From: Candidatus Magasanikiibacteriota bacterium
Lineage (GTDB): Bacteria > Patescibacteriota > Patescibacteriia > Magasanikbacterales > UBA922
Assembly: GCA_041674805.1 (NCBI GenBank)
Contig: JBAYVA010000003.1
Location: 91,029-155,028, forward strand
Length of the DNA stretch: 64,000 nt
Direction of reading: 5' to 3'
The translations under genes were made by a program, and so were the position numbers. The notes beneath the pieces are model-generated. The model worked only from the letters and a program-made list of their open reading frames with translations. It did not search any database and was not told the DNA's origin. Below are positions 8,670 through 18,603 of the stretch, in pieces. Within the stretch, counting starts at the first letter, position 1. Each line of letters opens with the position of its first letter.

Positions 8670-9431
8670 CTAAAATTTTCTATCACGACCAACAATCATT
8701 TCAATTCTACTTTTTGCTAGTTTTATTTTTACTTTTATTTCCTTTGAAATGTTACCATCAGTCTCTACCACAAAAGGCTTTTTACTATAAACAATTATTT
8801 CTTCAAAAGGAAAAATGCTTGGTTCTTCAAACTGCTCTTTTTTGAAAAAACCAGTTTTTACAATCGGACGTAAAAATGCTTCCAACTTACCATCTTGTGG
8901 ATGCACCACAAAATCTTTGCCACCTTTTGTCCACACAAATGGTTTCAAATTACAGACTACTAATTCCATTAATTTGCCTTTACTAGCTACTTTGAAACTT
9001 TCATCATATTCAATTTGAATATCACTAGGTGGAATATGAAGTTGAGAAATAAAATATCTATTATTTAGCCAGCCAACATCTAAATATAATTTTCTTCTCT
9101 TAGCCAAAATATCGCAAGCATCAAGACCAACAGGAATACCCAAAACTTCAGCAATAGTATTTTCAGTACCAACTGGCAAAAAACCATAAGTAACACGACA
9201 AGAAGCAGCACGGGACAAAACATGACCAAATGTCACATCATTACCAACTACTACAATAGTTTTAGCACCTTTTCTTATTTCATCTTCAATCAACATTTCA
9301 CAATTAGTATAACGCTGCAAACGAATTATTTTCCCAGCAATACCATAATCTGTTAATCTAGTTTCCATTGCTTTAACCAAAGAGTCATATCTTTTGTTTT
9401 TTAAAAAATTGTCATAAAGATAGACATACAT
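8670..9431 (-). CDS. Lipid kinase, diacylglycerol-kinase catalytic-domain family (YegS/BmrU-like)
   Basis: IVVVGNDVTFGHV and GFLPVGTENTIAEVLGIP motifs of DAGK_cat. Confidence 0.6.
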   Translation of the reverse strand: MYVYLYDNFLKNKRYDSLVKAMETRLTDYGIAGKIIRLQRYTNCEMLIEDEIRKGAKTIVVVGNDVTFGHVLSRAASCRVTYGFLPVGTENTIAEVLGIPVGLDACDILAKRRKLYLDVGWLNNRYFISQLHIPPSDIQIEYDESFKVASKGKLMELVVCNLKPFVWTKGGKDFVVHPQDGKLEAFLRPIVKTGFFKKEQFEEPSIFPFEEIIVYSKKPFVVETDGNISKEIKVKIKLAKSRIEMIVGRDRKF

Positions 9432-9464
9432 AAAGAAGATTCTTAAAACTTATTTCAACAAAAA

Positions 9465-9941
9465 CTATGCCTCCATTTGAGCATCGATATCCTCTTCAAT
9501 AGTCTTTTTTACACGTTTTGCTACTTTTTTTAATGAAGAATTTTCTATACCATCCATACTTACTTTACCTTGTAACAAAGCTCCAGCTTCAATTACTAAA
9601 GTAGCACAACTAATATCCCCAAGCAAACGAGCAGAAGATGTAAGCTCAAGACGTCCCTCTACTTTGACATTACCTTGTACTTCTCCAGAAACTACAGCAT
9701 CACCTGCTTTGACATTAGCCAAAATTTTGGCACCTTCTTCTACCGTCAAAAGACGTCCAGTTTTTACATTACCAGAAACAGTACCTTTGACCAAAATATT
9801 ACCTTCAGAGACAAAATCACCCTCTACTACCACAGATGGACCCACCACAGTTTCTACTTGATCTTCTTGATTAGAATGATGAGCATGATTAGTACTAGGT
9901 GCTGAAAAATTAGCTAAATCTTCTTGATTTTGTTTGAACAT
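9465..9941 (-). CDS. Bactofilin (polymer-forming cytoskeletal protein)
   Basis: Repetitive beta-helical segment VVVEGDFVSEGNILVKGTVSGNVKTGRLLTVEEGAKILANVKAGDAVVSGEVQGNV typical of the bactofilin domain. Confidence 0.75.
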   Translation of the reverse strand: MFKQNQEDLANFSAPSTNHAHHSNQEDQVETVVGPSVVVEGDFVSEGNILVKGTVSGNVKTGRLLTVEEGAKILANVKAGDAVVSGEVQGNVKVEGRLELTSSARLLGDISCATLVIEAGALLQGKVSMDGIENSSLKKVAKRVKKTIEEDIDAQMEA

Positions 9942-10032: not shown

Positions 10033-11667
10033 TCATTCCCCTTTTTCCTCTACCTTCACACCTGGTATCCAAAAACCAAACTCACTTCCTTTCCCTAGTC
10101 CCTCACTATGTGCCCAAACATGACCACCATGTTTTTCGATGAATCTCTTACAAACATAAATTCCAAGTCCAGTACCATTTACATTGGTTCCTTGTACATT
10201 TTTACCACGATAAAATTTTTGGAAAAAATTAACTTCATCTTCTTTGTTGAAACCAAAACCTTGATCTTTTATCTTCAAAACATAACCATTATCTTCTTTT
10301 TCAAGAGAAATTTTTATAGTTCCTTTGTCACTATATTTGATAGCATTATCCAAAAAGTTGAAAACTACATGACGAATCTTTTCTTCATCCATAACAATTT
10401 TATCAATATTTTTTTCAGATTTCCAAGATATTTTTAATTTTTTTTCTGCAAACTCAGGTTTCATAGATAGTTCTTTGACAACACTACTAATAGTCTCATT
10501 GAGACTATTTTCAGCAAATACAAATTTAGTACGACCTTGTTCAATACGTGTAATATCCAAGAATTCCTCTACCAAAGTCATAAGCCTATCATTACTCTCA
10601 TCCATATTTCCCAAAGTTTCTTTCAAACCTTTGCTAACTTTACCATAAGCTCCATCGCCAATAAGCTCAATATAACCACGAATAATCGTGAGAGGAGTAC
10701 GAAGTTGATGAGAAGCAATAGACAAAAACTCTGTTTTTTGTTGATCAAGTTCTTGAAGACGAAGATTGGCTTTTTCAAGATTGTGAGCAAGAATAGCTAA
10801 TTCTTCTTTTTGTTGGACTTCTTTTTTGACTGATTTTATTAAAAAAATACCAAAAATAACCACTAAAATAAATAATACTATATTTATAAATAATTCAAAT
10901 ATATTATTATAAAAAAATATAGGAAATATAAAAGACATTGTCAAAAATACTACAAATATTTGTGTAGCAAATACTTTTAATTCAAATAACTTATGTTTTA
11001 CAATAGCAAAAAAAGTAAACAAAACTAAGAAAAAAGAACTTACAGAACCTAACCTTTGTATTGAAAAATTATCATAAATAAAAGGTAAAATTATATTTGT
11101 AAGAGAACCAGTAAACAAAGATAAAAGCAACCCTGTTGAAAAATAAACCAACTGCATTCTTTTTTCATTATTATATTTTAATATTTTCAAAATTAAAATT
11201 ACCAAAGATAAAATAGAAAAAAATAAAAAATGTAAAAAAAATAAAAAATAATAATCACCAAATACAGTGCTTCTACCACTATTTTCAATAGAAAATACTT
11301 CATTAATAACGATATGATTTGAAAATAAAGTTAAACAAATTAAAAATATTAATTCTAAAAAAAATAATATAAAAAATGTTTTTTTTATCTTAAATTGTAT
11401 TTTCGGAAAATAATAAACAAATAAAAAAACAAAAAAAATTAATAATTCCGTAAAAACAAAATTAAATTTACCTATATTTAATAAATAATCTACAAAATGA
11501 TCATTATAATAAAAATACAAAGTAATCAACCAACCGGAGATAGACAAAGACATCAAAAAAAACGTTGTATTTATCTTATCTTTTAAGTTTTTATACAAAA
11601 CAAAAAAACCTAGAGACAAGGTGAATATAATATTTAACGCATAAACTACTAAATAAAAATAGTCCAT
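10033..11667 (-). CDS. Sensor histidine kinase with a large N-terminal multi-TM domain
   Basis: About 270 aa of hydrophobic helices, then a HisKA H-box (SIASHQLRTPLT) and an HATPase_c G-boxes (DQGFGF, GTGLGIY). Confidence 0.85.
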   Translation of the reverse strand: MDYFYLVVYALNIIFTLSLGFFVLYKNLKDKINTTFFLMSLSISGWLITLYFYYNDHFVDYLLNIGKFNFVFTELLIFFVFLFVYYFPKIQFKIKKTFFILFFLELIFLICLTLFSNHIVINEVFSIENSGRSTVFGDYYFLFFLHFLFFSILSLVILILKILKYNNEKRMQLVYFSTGLLLSLFTGSLTNIILPFIYDNFSIQRLGSVSSFFLVLFTFFAIVKHKLFELKVFATQIFVVFLTMSFIFPIFFYNNIFELFINIVLFILVVIFGIFLIKSVKKEVQQKEELAILAHNLEKANLRLQELDQQKTEFLSIASHQLRTPLTIIRGYIELIGDGAYGKVSKGLKETLGNMDESNDRLMTLVEEFLDITRIEQGRTKFVFAENSLNETISSVVKELSMKPEFAEKKLKISWKSEKNIDKIVMDEEKIRHVVFNFLDNAIKYSDKGTIKISLEKEDNGYVLKIKDQGFGFNKEDEVNFFQKFYRGKNVQGTNVNGTGLGIYVCKRFIEKHGGHVWAHSEGLGKGSEFGFWIPGVKVEEKGE

Positions 11668-11679
11668 GTTAATTATAAA

Positions 11680-12402
11680 TTATTTTATAAAAATATTTTT
11701 TGCTAATTTAATATATGGCAATAAAACCAAAGCACATCCTGTTTGTTTTTCTTTTACTTTTGTTTCAGAAAATGCAATAAAAGTTTCTTTATACTCAACA
11801 TTTTGATTTTCAGAAATTTTTTCTATACTCTTTATAACAGACTCAATATACTCTTGTTTATTTTTTAGTAACATTTCTCCAACATTTTCCATCAAAAGAC
11901 AAGCATTATTTTTTCTATCTTTAGGTATTGATATAGAAAAAACAGAAAATATTTTGCCTGGTTTATCTAAATAAAAATATTTAGCAGCACAAGGAACATG
12001 AGAACCTGGTTTAATAGGATATTTTTTTTTATTAACAGTACCTAAAATTTTTTTACTAGCGTTCAAAAAATCTTTACCATCATATAAACTCATTTTACCA
12101 AAGTTACCAATTTTTGTATATCCTTTTTTAGGTTTTAAAAAATCATAACCAGCAATTTTTCCATTAGGTCCACAAAATGAAGATACTGTTATCATATTAA
12201 ATTGTCCTAAATTTATACCATCAACTTCAGCTTTATCAAATGCAACAATATGATCTAAACCACGTACACCTGTTTCATTATTAACAGACACCGTTGATAA
12301 ATGTGTTAATAAAGTATAATAACCTCCGTTAGGCTCATCTAAATAACCCGTACAATAATCATTATAACTAGACGCATACAAATCTTTAGAAAAATCAAAC
12401 AT
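11680..12402 (-). CDS. Pyruvoyl-dependent histidine decarboxylase family protein (HdcA-like proenzyme)
   Basis: GQFNMITVSSFCGPNGKIAGYDFL aligns to the HdcA self-cleavage region GQINMTTASSFTGVQGRVIGYDIL, including the Ser-Ser pair (S74-S75). Further matches: YPIKPGSHVPCAAKY vs YPAPGSFIVCANKG, and FSVFSISIPKD vs WSAIAISFAKD. Confidence 0.6.
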   Translation of the reverse strand: MFDFSKDLYASSYNDYCTGYLDEPNGGYYTLLTHLSTVSVNNETGVRGLDHIVAFDKAEVDGINLGQFNMITVSSFCGPNGKIAGYDFLKPKKGYTKIGNFGKMSLYDGKDFLNASKKILGTVNKKKYPIKPGSHVPCAAKYFYLDKPGKIFSVFSISIPKDRKNNACLLMENVGEMLLKNKQEYIESVIKSIEKISENQNVEYKETFIAFSETKVKEKQTGCALVLLPYIKLAKNIFIK

Positions 12403-12413
12403 AAAAATAATTA

Positions 12414-13112
12414 TTATTTTTGAGAAAGTTCTTTTACTTTTTCAAAAAATTTATCTATACTTGAAACAAAATATAATAAATTTGATGTATTATCTTGTTC
12501 TTTTGAACCAAAATTATAAACCTCAGTAAAACCAAATAATTGAGAAATTTTATATAAATTACTATCTTTACTTGTCCAAAAACAAAAATGATTAACACCA
12601 GAAAGTTTAGCTTTTTTGAACAAAGGGACAACTAAGTTAATCAATTTTTCTAATCCTCCTCTATTATCGGCTCTCATACCAAACTCACGAACAGCTAATA
12701 CAGAATCCACATCAGGAAAAAATCTTAAAGCACTTTCAACAACATCCTTTTTAATATCATCGTCTTTAAAATTTTTAGGTAAATCTGTAATATTACCTAT
12801 ATTATCAACAAAATAAGCATGAGCAAAACCCACAACTTCTTCTTGTTCATTCAAAAACAAATTTAAATATTCATCAGAACCTTGACTGTCTATTTTCATT
12901 AACATATTCAAAACTTTTTCTTCATCCCAAACTTCATCCCACTGTGATTTATCTTCACCAAATTCTTTACTTTTATTAGCATCAAAAACAGAAATATAAC
13001 AATTTATATAACTTTTTAATAAACTATCATTTTTAAGCAATTCTGACAAAGAAACTAATTTTAAATTACCTGTTTTTTTTGGTTCTTTATCCCTTGAGAG
13101 ACCTTCTACCAT
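12414..13112 (-). CDS. Hypothetical protein, possible GNAT-fold acetyltransferase
   Basis: C-terminal segment LAVREFGMRADNRGGLEKLINLV...NHFCFWTSKDSNLYKISQLFGFTEV resembles GNAT motif A/B (R-x-x-G-x-G ... N ... GF). Weak. Confidence 0.3.
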   Translation of the reverse strand: MVEGLSRDKEPKKTGNLKLVSLSELLKNDSLLKSYINCYISVFDANKSKEFGEDKSQWDEVWDEEKVLNMLMKIDSQGSDEYLNLFLNEQEEVVGFAHAYFVDNIGNITDLPKNFKDDDIKKDVVESALRFFPDVDSVLAVREFGMRADNRGGLEKLINLVVPLFKKAKLSGVNHFCFWTSKDSNLYKISQLFGFTEVYNFGSKEQDNTSNLLYFVSSIDKFFEKVKELSQK

Positions 13113-13130: not shown

Positions 13131-14192
13131 TTAATTATTCCCTCCATCCAAAATTTTTAATAAACCTTTATTAATCTTTCTAATAGTCAATGGTCCCCCA
13201 TAAATAAAACCTGTAATCATTTGCAAAGCATCAGCTCCAGCTTGTAACTTTTGATAAGCATCCTCAGCTGTAAAAATACCCCCAACACCAATGATTTTTA
13301 GTTTATCGTGAGCTCGCTCACGAATATGACTAATTATTTTGTTACTTCTATCTTGCAGATGTTTACCAGAAATTCCACCAGGATGATTCAACTGTTCAGC
13401 AGATGATTTAAATTTTTTGACCCAAGATCTATTTTTTATCAGATTAGTTGCCACAATGCCAGTAATCTCATATTTCAAACACAAATCTATCACTTTGTCC
13501 AAATCTTCATAACTCATGTCTGGTCCAATCTTGATGAAAATATCTTTATTAATTTTTCGTTCTTTAACAATATTCATAATTTTCAGCAAAAGTTCTTCTA
13601 TAAAAGAAACTTGAGCAAAGACATCACACTTAGCAACATTTGGACAACTTACATTCAAAGTAATATAATCAGCCAGCTCATACAAATCCAAAAATGAACG
13701 AACATAATCATCTGCCATTTCTTTTCCTTCCAAACCAGTAGTTACCGCAATACTAATACCATAAGGTATATCGCGTTTTTGTAATTTTTCTTTTATTCTT
13801 TTGGCAGCTTCTACACTTCCACAATTAGACAAACCGTAGTAAACAATAAGACCATTATCTTTTGGCAAACGCCATAATCTTGGCTTAGGATTACCAGGTT
13901 GAGCTGAATTAGTGATAGAACCAAGCTCCACAAAACCAAAACCAAGCATAGGATAGGCCAACGGTGCTGTAATATTTTTATCAAAACCGGCTGACAATCC
14001 AACTGGATTTTTCAATTCTAAATTGCCAATTTTTACATGAAGACGTGGATCATCTACAAATAAAAATTTTTTTATTATATTATAAAATGGTGAAAATGAA
14101 CTTACTACTTTCAACATATGTATCACTAAATGATGTATTTTTTCTGGATCAGTTTTGAATAATATTGGTCTGATGATTTTTTTATACAACAT
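13131..14192 (-). CDS. pyrD: Dihydroorotate dehydrogenase (quinone-dependent, class 2-like)
   Basis: MLYKKIIRPILFKTDPEKIHHL N-terminus, NPVGLSAGFDKN, GFGFVELGSIT and the CPN motif. Confidence 0.85.
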   Translation of the reverse strand: MLYKKIIRPILFKTDPEKIHHLVIHMLKVVSSFSPFYNIIKKFLFVDDPRLHVKIGNLELKNPVGLSAGFDKNITAPLAYPMLGFGFVELGSITNSAQPGNPKPRLWRLPKDNGLIVYYGLSNCGSVEAAKRIKEKLQKRDIPYGISIAVTTGLEGKEMADDYVRSFLDLYELADYITLNVSCPNVAKCDVFAQVSFIEELLLKIMNIVKERKINKDIFIKIGPDMSYEDLDKVIDLCLKYEITGIVATNLIKNRSWVKKFKSSAEQLNHPGGISGKHLQDRSNKIISHIRERAHDKLKIIGVGGIFTAEDAYQKLQAGADALQMITGFIYGGPLTIRKINKGLLKILDGGNN

Positions 14193-14322: not shown

Positions 14323-16026
14323 TTACATTTCTGATACCACATCTATTGTAAGCAATCGAAGAGCCTTTGTCAAAACTTCTGAAACTTTGATACTCAAATA
14401 TAATCTGGATTTTATTAATTCTTCACTTTCAGCATTTAATACACTATGTTTGTTATAAAAATCATTATACATTTTGGCTAAGTCAAAACAATACTTGGCA
14501 ATAACAGATGAATTATAATTTTCTAATGATTTTGTAATAATTTCTGGAAAATCAGATACTTTCATTACTAAATTTTTTACTTCATCTTCTGTAAACAACG
14601 TGAAATCAGTATCATCATTTAATTTACCAGTAAATTTTTTTTGCAAACTATTGATACGAGCAACAGTATAGAGAATATATGGCGCACTAAAACCATCAAA
14701 ACTCACCGCTTCATCAAAATCAAAAGTTACCACTTTGTCAGCTTCGTGCTTTTGCATAGTGAACTTGAGAACTGCCATCGTCAAAACATGAACCGTCTCT
14801 TTTACTTTTTCTTCGCTCCAGTCTTCATGACGAGCTTTTGTTTCTTTTTGTAAATGTTCCAAAACTCTATCACGCAAATCTTCGTAAAGTATCACTCCAC
14901 CGTTACGAGAAGACATTTTCCCCCCATTTGGAGTATTAATTAAGCCATAACCAATATGCGTCATTTTTTTGTCAAAACCATTTAGTTCCAAAACTTTGTA
15001 AAGCTGTTTGAAATAAAAATCTTGTTCACTACCAGTAATATTGATACTTTCTTCTACATCGTAGCGTTTAAACTTCTCCTCTGATAAAGCTAAATCACTA
15101 GTCATATAAACACCGGCTCCAGTACTTTTGCGAAGCAAAGCAATATCCAAATTGTATTTATTTAAATCAGCAATAATAGCACCGCCTTCCCCTACTTCAG
15201 CAATTTTCTTGTCTAATAATTCATCAACCAATTTTTGTCCTGCAGTTTTCACTTCACTTTCGTAAATAATAGAATCATGTTCTACTTTCATTTCTTGCAT
15301 CAAATCAACAAAACCATCAGTACTCCATTTTCTGGTTTCCAAAAATAATTTAGTAATTTCGGCTTCTCCACTTTCCAATTTTTGTTGCATATCATCTAAC
15401 TCAGCCTTATACTCTTCATCATGTTCTTTCAAATAATTACTAGCTTTGACATAAATCTCACCAAGCATCTTTTGTTTATTTTGAGCATTATTAATCTCCG
15501 AACTCTGAACTCCGAACTCTGAACTATGTAAAATTCCCCACAAACATTTCACCACATGACGACCAAAGTCGTTGACGTAATTCATCGGGATAATATCATA
15601 ACCACTCGCACGATAAACTTGCACAATAGTATTGCCAATACAAACATTGCGAAAATGTCCAATATGAAATTCTTTGTGAGTATTTTGAGAAGGATATTCA
15701 ATCAAAACTTTTTTACCTTGACCAATATTATTGTTACCAAAATTTTCATTCACTTCTTCCAAAATTAATTTACTAACTTCAGCAGTATCTAAAAATAAAT
15801 TAACATAAGGACCAAAAGCTTTTATTTCTTTTATAATTGAGTCTGTTGGCACAGAAAAGTTTTCTACAAAATTCTTGGCAAATTCAGCTGGATTTTGTTT
15901 TTCTTTTTTGGCTAAGTCAAAACAAGGTAGAGCAATATCACCCATTTCAGCTTTTGGTGGAGTTGAAAATATAAGATTTTCTAATCCCAAAATTTCTTGG
16001 ATTTTTGTTTGTAAAATTTTATTCAT
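14323..16026 (-). CDS. argS: Arginine--tRNA ligase
   Basis: HIGH motif (HIGHFRNVCIGN), KMSSRNGG (KMSKS-like) and a DALR-type C-terminal domain. Confidence 0.9.
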   Translation of the reverse strand: MNKILQTKIQEILGLENLIFSTPPKAEMGDIALPCFDLAKKEKQNPAEFAKNFVENFSVPTDSIIKEIKAFGPYVNLFLDTAEVSKLILEEVNENFGNNNIGQGKKVLIEYPSQNTHKEFHIGHFRNVCIGNTIVQVYRASGYDIIPMNYVNDFGRHVVKCLWGILHSSEFGVQSSEINNAQNKQKMLGEIYVKASNYLKEHDEEYKAELDDMQQKLESGEAEITKLFLETRKWSTDGFVDLMQEMKVEHDSIIYESEVKTAGQKLVDELLDKKIAEVGEGGAIIADLNKYNLDIALLRKSTGAGVYMTSDLALSEEKFKRYDVEESINITGSEQDFYFKQLYKVLELNGFDKKMTHIGYGLINTPNGGKMSSRNGGVILYEDLRDRVLEHLQKETKARHEDWSEEKVKETVHVLTMAVLKFTMQKHEADKVVTFDFDEAVSFDGFSAPYILYTVARINSLQKKFTGKLNDDTDFTLFTEDEVKNLVMKVSDFPEIITKSLENYNSSVIAKYCFDLAKMYNDFYNKHSVLNAESEELIKSRLYLSIKVSEVLTKALRLLTIDVVSEM

Positions 16027-17490: not shown

Positions 17491-18603
17491 TTAGGCTGCC
17501 AAAGGTAAATACAATGAAATTACAGTACCATGTCCTTTTTCTTTTACCTTCCTAGCAAAATGATTTTCACCATCTTTATTAAACATTTTTTCTACTTCGT
17601 CATGACTATGAAGAGTTATAGACTTACCAGGAATACCAATACCATTACTATAATATTCAAAGTTGTCTTGACCAACTCTCTTTGAAAGAATTACAATCTC
17701 TACTCCCATTTGTGCTAAACGTATATGTAAATCAGCCAAACCAAGACCACTACTTCCAGTACTTGAACTACCTTTTTTGAAAATACAATCTGCATCCTTT
17801 GGATCCAAATGTCTAAACTCCATTCCTTTTCCTGTATCACTAACTCTAATTACTAAGTCATTATCCTCTACAAAAATATCAACATCAATCTCAGTATTTT
17901 CTCCTGCTACTTCAATATTTTTTTTCAAAGAATTACGTAGTTCATTCAAGATAGTATTTCCTACAACAGCTATATCTCCTTTTATTTGTTTACCTTCTAA
18001 TTGTCTATATAAAACATCCCAATCAACATCTATTTGTAATCTTCTTTTTTCAATGCCCTCATAAGAATTACTACCAGAATTTTTTTGTTTTAATTTTACA
18101 ATTTCTTTTTCTACAAAAAAGTCCAAAACATTTTTTATTACCTCCAAATCAAAGTTATATTTCATTTCATATTCCTGCCCAGACATAAACAACTGCCTAA
18201 GTAATGCGTCCTTTAAAGCCACATAAAATCTAAACCAATCACTACGATATTCACTCAACAATTCTAAATCCTCGCTAACTGCTGAATAATCACCTTTTGC
18301 TAGATCACTTTTTAATAAAGCTAAAAAACCCACAAAACCAGTGCCAATATTATTCAAATCATGCAAACGATGCTTATCCAAATCTTGATTTTTTCTAATT
18401 AAGTCAATCGCACGGAAAATACTATCTATATGTCTAGATAAAGTAAATAGTTCCTCTATTGAAAAAGTAATCTCTTTTTTCAATACAAATTCATTAATAA
18501 CATCCAAAGATTCTATATATTTTTGTGCTAATAAATCTGATTCTTTTTTTTCTTTTTTTTCAACACCTATTGACGTTCCTCTTTTTAATTCTGAAAAAAC
18601 CAT
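17491..18603 (-). CDS. Soluble (no obvious TM) histidine-kinase-like protein
   Basis: H-box-like HRLHDLNN and HATPase_c motifs (DTGKGME, GSSGLGLADLH). Confidence 0.6.
   Translation of the reverse strand: MVFSELKRGTSIGVEKKEKKESDLLAQKYIESLDVINEFVLKKEITFSIEELFTLSRHIDSIFRAIDLIRKNQDLDKHRLHDLNNIGTGFVGFLALLKSDLAKGDYSAVSEDLELLSEYRSDWFRFYVALKDALLRQLFMSGQEYEMKYNFDLEVIKNVLDFFVEKEIVKLKQKNSGSNSYEGIEKRRLQIDVDWDVLYRQLEGKQIKGDIAVVGNTILNELRNSLKKNIEVAGENTEIDVDIFVEDNDLVIRVSDTGKGMEFRHLDPKDADCIFKKGSSSTGSSGLGLADLHIRLAQMGVEIVILSKRVGQDNFEYYSNGIGIPGKSITLHSHDEVEKMFNKDGENHFARKVKEKGHGTVISLYLPLAA

Follow-up and report, generated by a model that had tools for sequence, protein, structure and literature searches.

We found that three adjacent genes on the minus strand of a 64-kb window of DNA from a Candidatus Magasanikiibacteriota bacterium (the window being the whole stretch analysed, 64,000 nucleotides) form one conserved cassette: ORF232, whose product is GNAT-like at the level of its modelled fold, ORF240, which codes for a predicted pyruvoyl-dependent decarboxylase proenzyme, and the gene of a sensor histidine kinase. 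The cassette probably makes, and perhaps senses, a modified amine. In our best reading a basic amino acid is decarboxylated, the amine is N-acylated and the enzyme pair is functionally tied to the kinase; taken as a whole, we give this reading about an even chance. The enzyme superfamilies are already known, as is the annotation of ORF240, which is named 'histidine decarboxylase, pyruvoyl type' by PGAP, and ORF232 is recorded as 'hypothetical protein'. The parts of the cassette are as follows.

12414-13112, minus strand: ORF232, a divergent protein with a predicted GNAT fold from an unannotated family (AlphaFold2 (AF2) fold and conserved adjacency to the histidine decarboxylase (HDC)-like gene)
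11680-12402, minus strand: ORF240, a predicted pyruvoyl-dependent decarboxylase proenzyme from a distinct clade of the HDC/PvlArgDC family (PF02329 and alignments)
12178-12183, minus strand: codons of Ser74-Ser75, the predicted self-cleavage site (translation TVSSFC; aligns with S81-S82 of Lactobacillus 30a HDC)
10033-11667, minus strand: sensor histidine kinase of 544 residues, the third cassette member (Pfam HisKA_7TM, HisKA and HATPase_c)
10813-11667, minus strand: membrane-embedded seven-transmembrane (7TM) sensor region of the kinase, residues 1-285 (PF16927 and hydrophobic segments)

The original prediction had singled out ORF240 and ORF232, and both open reading frames are indeed present on the minus strand. 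It had placed the GNAT-like gene downstream, which proved to be incorrect: ORF232 is transcriptionally upstream of ORF240, with a gap of 11 nt, and ORF240 is separated from the kinase gene by 12 nt. When the window was scanned, no terminator-like site was found between pyrD (the gene that precedes ORF232), ORF232, ORF240 and the kinase gene, and promoter-like matches around these genes were no more frequent than chance. The spacing of the three cassette genes is operon-like.

To begin with ORF240, a hidden Markov model (HMM) search gave a match to the Pfam family PF02329 (HDC) with 108.1 bits (gathering cut-off 25, E 6e-31) over residues 10-236, in agreement with the proenzyme family originally proposed. 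The C-terminal half (residues 128-230) also matched PF01862 (PvlArgDC) above threshold, with 33.7 bits. In a phmmer search of the PDB, S74 of ORF240 was aligned with S81, the C-terminal residue of the beta chain of HDC from Lactobacillus 30a (L30a; 1hq6/1ibt), and S75-F76 with S82-F83, the start of the alpha chain. A profile of 16 ORF240 homologues aligned with full-length L. reuteri HdcA with an hhalign probability of 99.9% and 26% identity. The motif FNMITVSSFCGPNG, on which the first assignment had been based in part, is present in ORF240, and the motifs of its clade are VSSFCGP and PGSH. The predicted chains are a beta chain of residues 1-74 (8.2 kDa) and an alpha chain of residues 75-240 (18.7 kDa), and after cleavage Ser75 would become the pyruvoyl group.

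For a comparison of individual residues, 57 unique members of the clade were aligned with HdcA; positions are given in L30a numbering. S81, S82, D63, E66, N76, F83, E197 and Y262 are invariant (57/57), the Ser-Ser pair being intact throughout, and K155 is kept in 56 of the 57 sequences. The equivalents in ORF240 are S74, S75, D56, E59, N69, F76, E172, Y230 and K141, respectively; in addition, the pocket residue I59 is kept as I52. In L30a HDC we take E197 to be the proton donor, D63 and the carboxylate of S81 to bind the imidazole, and I59, Y62 and F195 to belong to the substrate pocket. The clade differs from HdcA by F149H and T84C, which are invariant, and by I196M, Y62F and F195L/M; ORF240 itself has F at the position of Y62 and L at that of F195. 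E66, together with the overall similarity, would favour an HDC-like pocket.

Compared with HdcA of L30a (1pya, 1hq6, 1ibt; TIGR00541), the window protein has in common the PF02329 match, the full-length alignment, the Ser-Ser site and residues Glu197, Lys155, Asp63, Glu66 and Ile59, but the identity is only about 26% and a C-terminal tail of about 45-70 residues is missing. This tail, with an L..WE motif, is present in HdcA and in the other clade members and absent from ORF240 and its nearest relatives (240-246 residues); since the shortened form is conserved in the lineage, ORF240 is not a pseudogene. PdaD and AaxB (PF01862; 1n2m, 1mt1) belong to the same superfamily and have the D35-equivalent Asp and the catalytic Glu, but these proteins are about 165 residues long, compared with 240-290 residues here, and the match is only partial (34 bits). 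From these alignments we conclude that ORF240 is a putative self-processing pyruvoyl decarboxylase under purifying selection, belonging to a distinct clade.

The sequence of ORF232 was searched against Pfam, NCBIfam and the PDB (phmmer) and no family match was found. A word-indexed search returned ORF232 itself only, so that it appeared to be an orphan; this was an artefact of sensitivity, and an exhaustive phmmer search of 1.84 billion representative proteins revealed 38 relatives, which are called 'hypothetical protein' wherever they are named in public records. We aligned 34 sequences of the family (alignment A2) and used the alignment for AF2 modelling and for the analysis of conservation. 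The conserved blocks are VFNA.G..EWGE.WT, RE.GI....RGGL and FWTS..S.LY; R151 is invariant, and F43, W58, E60, E143, G153, W179 and T180 are near-invariant. When a profile of A2 was compared with the PDB, no GNAT was found; taken together, the sequence-based searches gave either nothing or spurious matches such as PsaD and QacR.

The AF2 model obtained with A2 had a predicted local distance difference test (pLDDT) score of 90.1 and a predicted template-modelling (TM) score of 0.86; it replaced a single-sequence model (pLDDT 44), which had given weak fold-search hints. The order of elements in the model, b1-a1-a2-b2-b3-b4-a3-b5-a4-b6-b7, is that of a GNAT, with E143 on strand beta4 and R151-G-G153 at the beta4-alpha3 junction, and there is an additional helix at 118-131, a C-terminal helix and extensions at both termini. 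A Foldseek search of the PDB with this model gave 463 matches at E<=1e-3, of which the top 50 were all GNATs. The best was Drosophila dopamine N-acetyltransferase (5gi5, E 6e-8, TM 0.54/0.60), followed by mosquito arylalkylamine N-acetyltransferases and by an agmatine (7ciu) and a polyamine (5k9n) N-acetyltransferase. Judged by the model, ORF232 is GNAT-like at the level of the fold, and its nearest structural neighbours are biogenic-amine N-acetyltransferases. The GNAT-like motifs originally proposed hold in this sense, although they could not be detected by sequence search in Pfam, NCBIfam or the PDB. The best-matching insect enzymes (5gi5, 4fd6, 7ciu; TM 0.52-0.60, E 6e-8) belong to the dopamine, arylalkylamine and agmatine N-acetyltransferases, which acetylate the amine products of amino-acid decarboxylases. 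ORF232 is only 10-14% identical to them and differs in its non-canonical coenzyme A (CoA) loop, in the helix at 118-131 and in the terminal extensions. We also noticed that three family members (P0023, P0032 and P0045; A2 columns 130-165) have an insertion of about 30-40 residues with a CxxC...CxC pattern after the EW.E motif, a putative zinc ribbon.

Relatives of ORF240 were collected from a protein database, by contig look-ups and in a survey of 185,579 species, each represented by one genome, which yielded 54 loci; the content of the loci was determined by HMM, phmmer and tblastn searches. The HDC-like gene occurs in two mutually exclusive contexts, type A (39 unique loci) and type B (18 unique loci). 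Type A, to which the window belongs, was found in Magasanik-, Uhr-, Nealson-, Dojka-, Parcu- and Saccharibacteria and in one clade of Actinomycetota. Among the 38 evaluable type-A loci, a gene of the ORF232 family adjoins the HDC-like gene in 34 (E<=1e-3), and the other four have weaker matches to the family (2e-7 to 0.08) that include its N-terminal motif. The 7TM kinase adjoins the HDC-like gene in 37/38. In these kinases the homology to the window kinase extends to the 7TM domain (E 1e-9 to 1e-73) and is not confined to the catalytic core; an added GAF domain is frequent. The adjacency of the kinase is kept at 35-50% decarboxylase identity and across phyla, and all other neighbours vary.

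The order and orientation of the three genes are not fixed. Most type-A loci have GNAT>HDC>HK> (HK, histidine kinase); the closest Magasanikbacteria relatives, with no pyrD at that position, have <GNAT HDC>HK>; Actinomycetota have GNAT>HDC><HK; locus L028 has HDC>GNAT>HK> and locus L048 <HK GNAT>HDC>. The persistent linkage of the kinase shows a functional tie. A reciprocal test was also made: metagenome contigs were screened with a degenerate DNA pattern for the GNAT-like motif, which gave six strong family members. The HDC-like gene was directly downstream of the GNAT-like gene in all four hits with enough flank, and the 7TM kinase followed in all three contigs that were long enough. The pairing is thus conserved in both directions, which supports the idea, already put forward in the original prediction, of decarboxylation coupled to N-acylation. 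Family membership, the conservation of catalytic residues, the GNAT fold and the linkage of the three genes through rearrangements are what these comparisons establish directly.

The original prediction had described the decarboxylase family as narrow and mostly confined to Firmicutes. This applies to canonical HdcA only, whereas the clade described here occurs in Patescibacteria, Actinomycetota, Acidobacteriota and Myxococcota. The cassette was also seen in metagenome-assembled genomes (MAGs) titled Gammaproteobacteria, Pseudomonadales or Rickettsiales (L005/L057, L029-L031, L033, L037, L040, L046 and L064); their GC content is 38-42% and they fall among the Patescibacteria in the tree, and for L005/L057 NCBI gives Patescibacteria at the protein level, so that the labels are doubtful. 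Separately, canonical-type hdcA homologues (<60% identity to L30a) were noticed on plasmids of Rhizobium, Methylocystis and Salipiger, so that pyruvoyl HDCs also occur outside the Gram-positive bacteria.

Type B was found in Acidobacteriota and Myxococcota (loci L008-L014, L016, L018-L023, L026, L027, L036, L041, L053 and L062, e.g. L008:4847-6843). Here the gene directly upstream of the HDC-like gene codes for a homologue of L-arginine:glycine amidinotransferase (AGAT; PDB 1jdx, E 2e-82), which also matches SxtG, HsvA and StrB1 and is 72-90% identical between the two phyla. No GNAT-like gene or 7TM kinase was found in the 18 unique type-B loci; a divergently transcribed single-pass Ser/Thr kinase is present in 15 and an extracytoplasmic-function (ECF) sigma factor in nine. 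A neighbour-joining tree, computed without support values, showed canonical HdcA as a long-branch outgroup and type B as one clade nested within type A. The pocket residues of the decarboxylase are nearly identical in the two types in the 57-member alignment. A GNAT and an amidinotransferase both take a primary amine as acceptor, and as they occupy the same position beside nearly the same pocket, the simplest model would be a single amine product that receives an N-acyl cap in type A and an N-amidino cap in type B.

The kinase of the window matches PF16927 (HisKA_7TM) at residues 13-230. Eight hydrophobic segments lie between residues 3 and 284, which would make seven or eight passes through the membrane within residues 1-285, with no large loop or sizeable extracytoplasmic domain. 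We know of no ligand for the HisKA_7TM sensor domain. One paper includes it in its sensor domains but names no ligand (PMC5847659). Response regulators, either single-domain receivers of 121-160 residues or proteins of about 224 residues, adjoin the cassette in 11 loci (L015, L017, L029, L030, L032, L033, L037, L047, L056, L058 and L059). In CqsA/CqsS and LuxM/LuxN a synthase gene lies beside the gene of a histidine kinase that has a multi-pass membrane sensor and no large periplasmic domain. The cassette is similar in that putative biosynthetic genes stand beside a polytopic sensor kinase, but its enzymes and its 7TM domain are unrelated to those of the two systems.

On the basis of these data the following sequence of events can be proposed. 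The ORF240 proenzyme would cut itself between Ser74 and Ser75, so that the alpha chain would begin with a pyruvoyl group, and the matured enzyme would decarboxylate a basic amino acid to a primary amine. ORF232 would then acylate the amine from acyl-CoA, or possibly from acyl carrier protein, to give an N-acyl amine such as N-acetylhistamine; for a diamino acid substrate, capping could precede decarboxylation. The 7TM kinase would most likely detect the amine, the acyl-amine or a precursor within the membrane. It could serve as a product sensor resembling an autoinducer receptor, as a sensor of the precursor, or for the control of expression only. The suggestion of a signalling metabolite made in the original prediction gains support from the adjacent kinase. 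A complete, self-contained signalling circuit of Patescibacteria and some Actinomycetota, in which an N-acyl amine (autoinducer-like or host-directed) has the 7TM kinase as its receptor, and the Acidobacteriota and Myxococcota module of amidinotransferase, decarboxylase, Ser/Thr kinase and ECF sigma factor is a parallel guanidino-amine circuit, seems unlikely to us.

Several observations weigh against the reading of decarboxylation, N-acylation and a tie to the kinase. With respect to histidine as substrate, ORF240 scored 101.1 bits against the HdcA equivalog TIGR00541 of NCBIfam, below the cut-off of 346.65; the changes F149H, T84C, Y62F and F195L/M suggest that the substrate may be other than histidine; and D63 is common to arginine decarboxylase (D35), so it does not discriminate between substrates. 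With respect to ORF232, no family member reached threshold in a Pfam scan, with sub-threshold GNAT matches in only 3/34, and the position of the pyrophosphate loop is occupied by R-G-G, with a spacing that differs from Q/R-x-x-G-x-G/A. No response regulator was found within the 64-kb window, and the linkage of the kinase does not tell what the kinase senses. In addition, in locus L049 (2-2910), the single exception to the adjacency of the kinase, whose upstream flank is missing from the sequence, a 674-residue P-type ATPase-like open reading frame with an overlapping start replaces the kinase after the HDC-like gene. The catalytic activity, the substrate, the order of the steps, the acyl donor and the kinase ligand are inferred.

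The histidine substrate implied in the original prediction is therefore not established, although the assignment to the histidine-decarboxylase family through PF02329 stands. Histidine is still the single most likely substrate in our view, if tentatively and well short of an even chance; arginine, lysine and ornithine are further candidates. If one of these three were the substrate, the locus would encode a pathway to polyamines or diamines (agmatine, cadaverine or putrescine), in which decarboxylation is followed by N-acetylation in type A and by amidination in type B, or in which the modifying enzyme acts first on the side-chain amine, and the kinase would merely regulate expression. This is a serious possibility, though we do not favour it. 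It is consistent with the PF01862 match, with the alignment of ORF240 D56 with D35 of the M. jannaschii arginine decarboxylase, and with the failure of ORF240 to reach the HdcA equivalog cut-off; the type-B partner resembles AGAT and HsvA, with arginine as the amidino donor, and agmatine and polyamine N-acetyltransferases (7ciu, 5k9n) are among the top fold matches of ORF232. ORF240, however, is far nearer to HDC, which it matches over its full length with 108 bits, than to PvlArgDC with 34 bits in the C-terminal half; it scored only 43.9 bits against the PvlArgDC equivalog TIGR00286 (PdaD), below the cut-off of 106.95; and E66, which is HDC-specific in the PDB alignment, is invariant in the clade.

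The GNAT-like protein might instead be a maturation or regulatory factor that attaches to the proenzyme and triggers or gates the Ser-Ser self-cleavage, and not a metabolic enzyme. A precedent exists in PanZ (PMC3496974), which has a GNAT fold and activates the PanD zymogen without catalysis; this pair, too, is made up of a pyruvoyl proenzyme and a GNAT-fold protein. The maturation of HdcA uses HdcB (PMC5313534), which is absent here, the CoA loop of ORF232 is non-canonical, and its family appears to be dedicated to the cassette. But the fold of PanD is different, and the type-B sister clade keeps the identical invariant VSSFCGP motif with an amidinotransferase in place of the GNAT, so cleavage does not generally need a GNAT-like partner. 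Moreover, the top structural matches of ORF232 are amine N-acetyltransferases, with PanZ outside the top 50. HdcB was considered as a homologue of ORF232 and rejected, the two families being unrelated (hhalign probability 0.15%). We regard a maturation factor as distinctly unlikely and the acyltransferase role as the better supported.

The remaining genes around the cassette are the following.

14323-16026, minus strand: argS, the first of the listed genes in transcription order
13131-14192, minus strand: pyrD, between argS and ORF232
9465-9941, minus strand: bactofilin, after the kinase
8670-9431, minus strand: DAGK-like gene, after bactofilin

The order of transcription is argS, pyrD, ORF232, ORF240, kinase, bactofilin, DAGK-like gene, and 18 nt separate pyrD from ORF232. 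The original prediction had described the pair as lying between a histidine kinase and pyrD; these positions are correct, but the kinase is a member of the conserved module and pyrD is incidental, being absent in the closest relatives. When the window was compared with L001-L004, the window alone had pyrD between argS and the cassette, and the GNAT-like gene was inverted in the closest relatives; the absence of pyrD there and the inversion indicate local rearrangement. The bactofilin gene and the DAGK-like lipid-kinase gene (8670-9941) also follow the kinase in L001, L002, L003 and L054. The window shares this order with its Magasanikbacteria relatives and one Uhrbacteria MAG but not with other lineages, and it looks like lineage-specific synteny. 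The GC content of the cassette resembles that of its surroundings, and the gene order held in common with related Magasanikbacteria speaks for vertical descent of the window cassette. Other neighbours identified in Pfam scans are glycosyltransferases, riboflavin synthase, tRNA synthetases and pyrD. Between the genes of valyl- and tyrosyl-tRNA synthetase (17491-18603), we also observed a protein of 370 residues with HATPase_c as its sole Pfam match and no HisKA, which may be an atypical kinase-like ATPase.

The adjacency of the kinase could itself be inherited synteny without functional meaning, the enzyme pair alone being a unit. Patescibacterial genomes are gene-dense and co-directional, the bactofilin and DAGK-like genes are likewise syntenic in the Magasanik/Uhrbacteria lineage, and the 64-kb window is without a response regulator. 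We consider this quite improbable, as the adjacency is kept in 37/38 loci despite 35-50% decarboxylase identity and across phyla, and it survives inversion (Actinomycetota), a move upstream (L048) and insertion of the GNAT-like gene in between (L028), while the remaining neighbours all vary.

The canonical cluster has the composition hdcC-hdcA-hdcB-hisS (PMC5313534). With HdcC and HdcB from such a cluster as queries, tblastn gave no match in 65 related loci, nor in the 64-kb window itself, in keeping with the earlier remark that there is no antiporter, and no transporter was seen in Pfam scans among the genes flanking the pair. The loci of ORF240 thus differ from the canonical cluster in having no antiporter, HdcB or hisS and in having other conserved partners. 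A defence-system role of the locus was also considered and rejected, since PADLOC gave generic HATPase matches only. A classical histidine-to-histamine system for acid resistance or proton-motive force, with the antiporter encoded elsewhere, has on its side the PGAP name and the conserved pocket residues I59, D63, S81 and E197, but with HdcC and HdcB absent, no transporter among the neighbours, a score of 101 bits where the HdcA equivalog needs 346.65, and a GNAT-like protein and a sensor kinase as conserved partners, it is very unlikely.

In the searchable literature we found no description of the cassette, of the GNAT-like family, of the pairing of HDC with an amidinotransferase or of HDC in Saccharibacteria. 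The parts of the cassette are small and mostly soluble and are amenable to work in E. coli. If confirmed, ORF240 and its relatives would be a new functional clade of pyruvoyl decarboxylases beyond the HdcA of food spoilage, ORF232 would represent a new GNAT family whose predicted substrate is an amine, and the product would provide a candidate class of ligands for the HisKA_7TM sensor domain. The genomes of Patescibacteria are tiny, and their signalling and host-directed chemistry are very poorly known; the trio has been kept across several of their lineages. The parallel type-B module with its amidinotransferase points to a general pattern, 'make an amine, cap it', with a link to signalling kinases.

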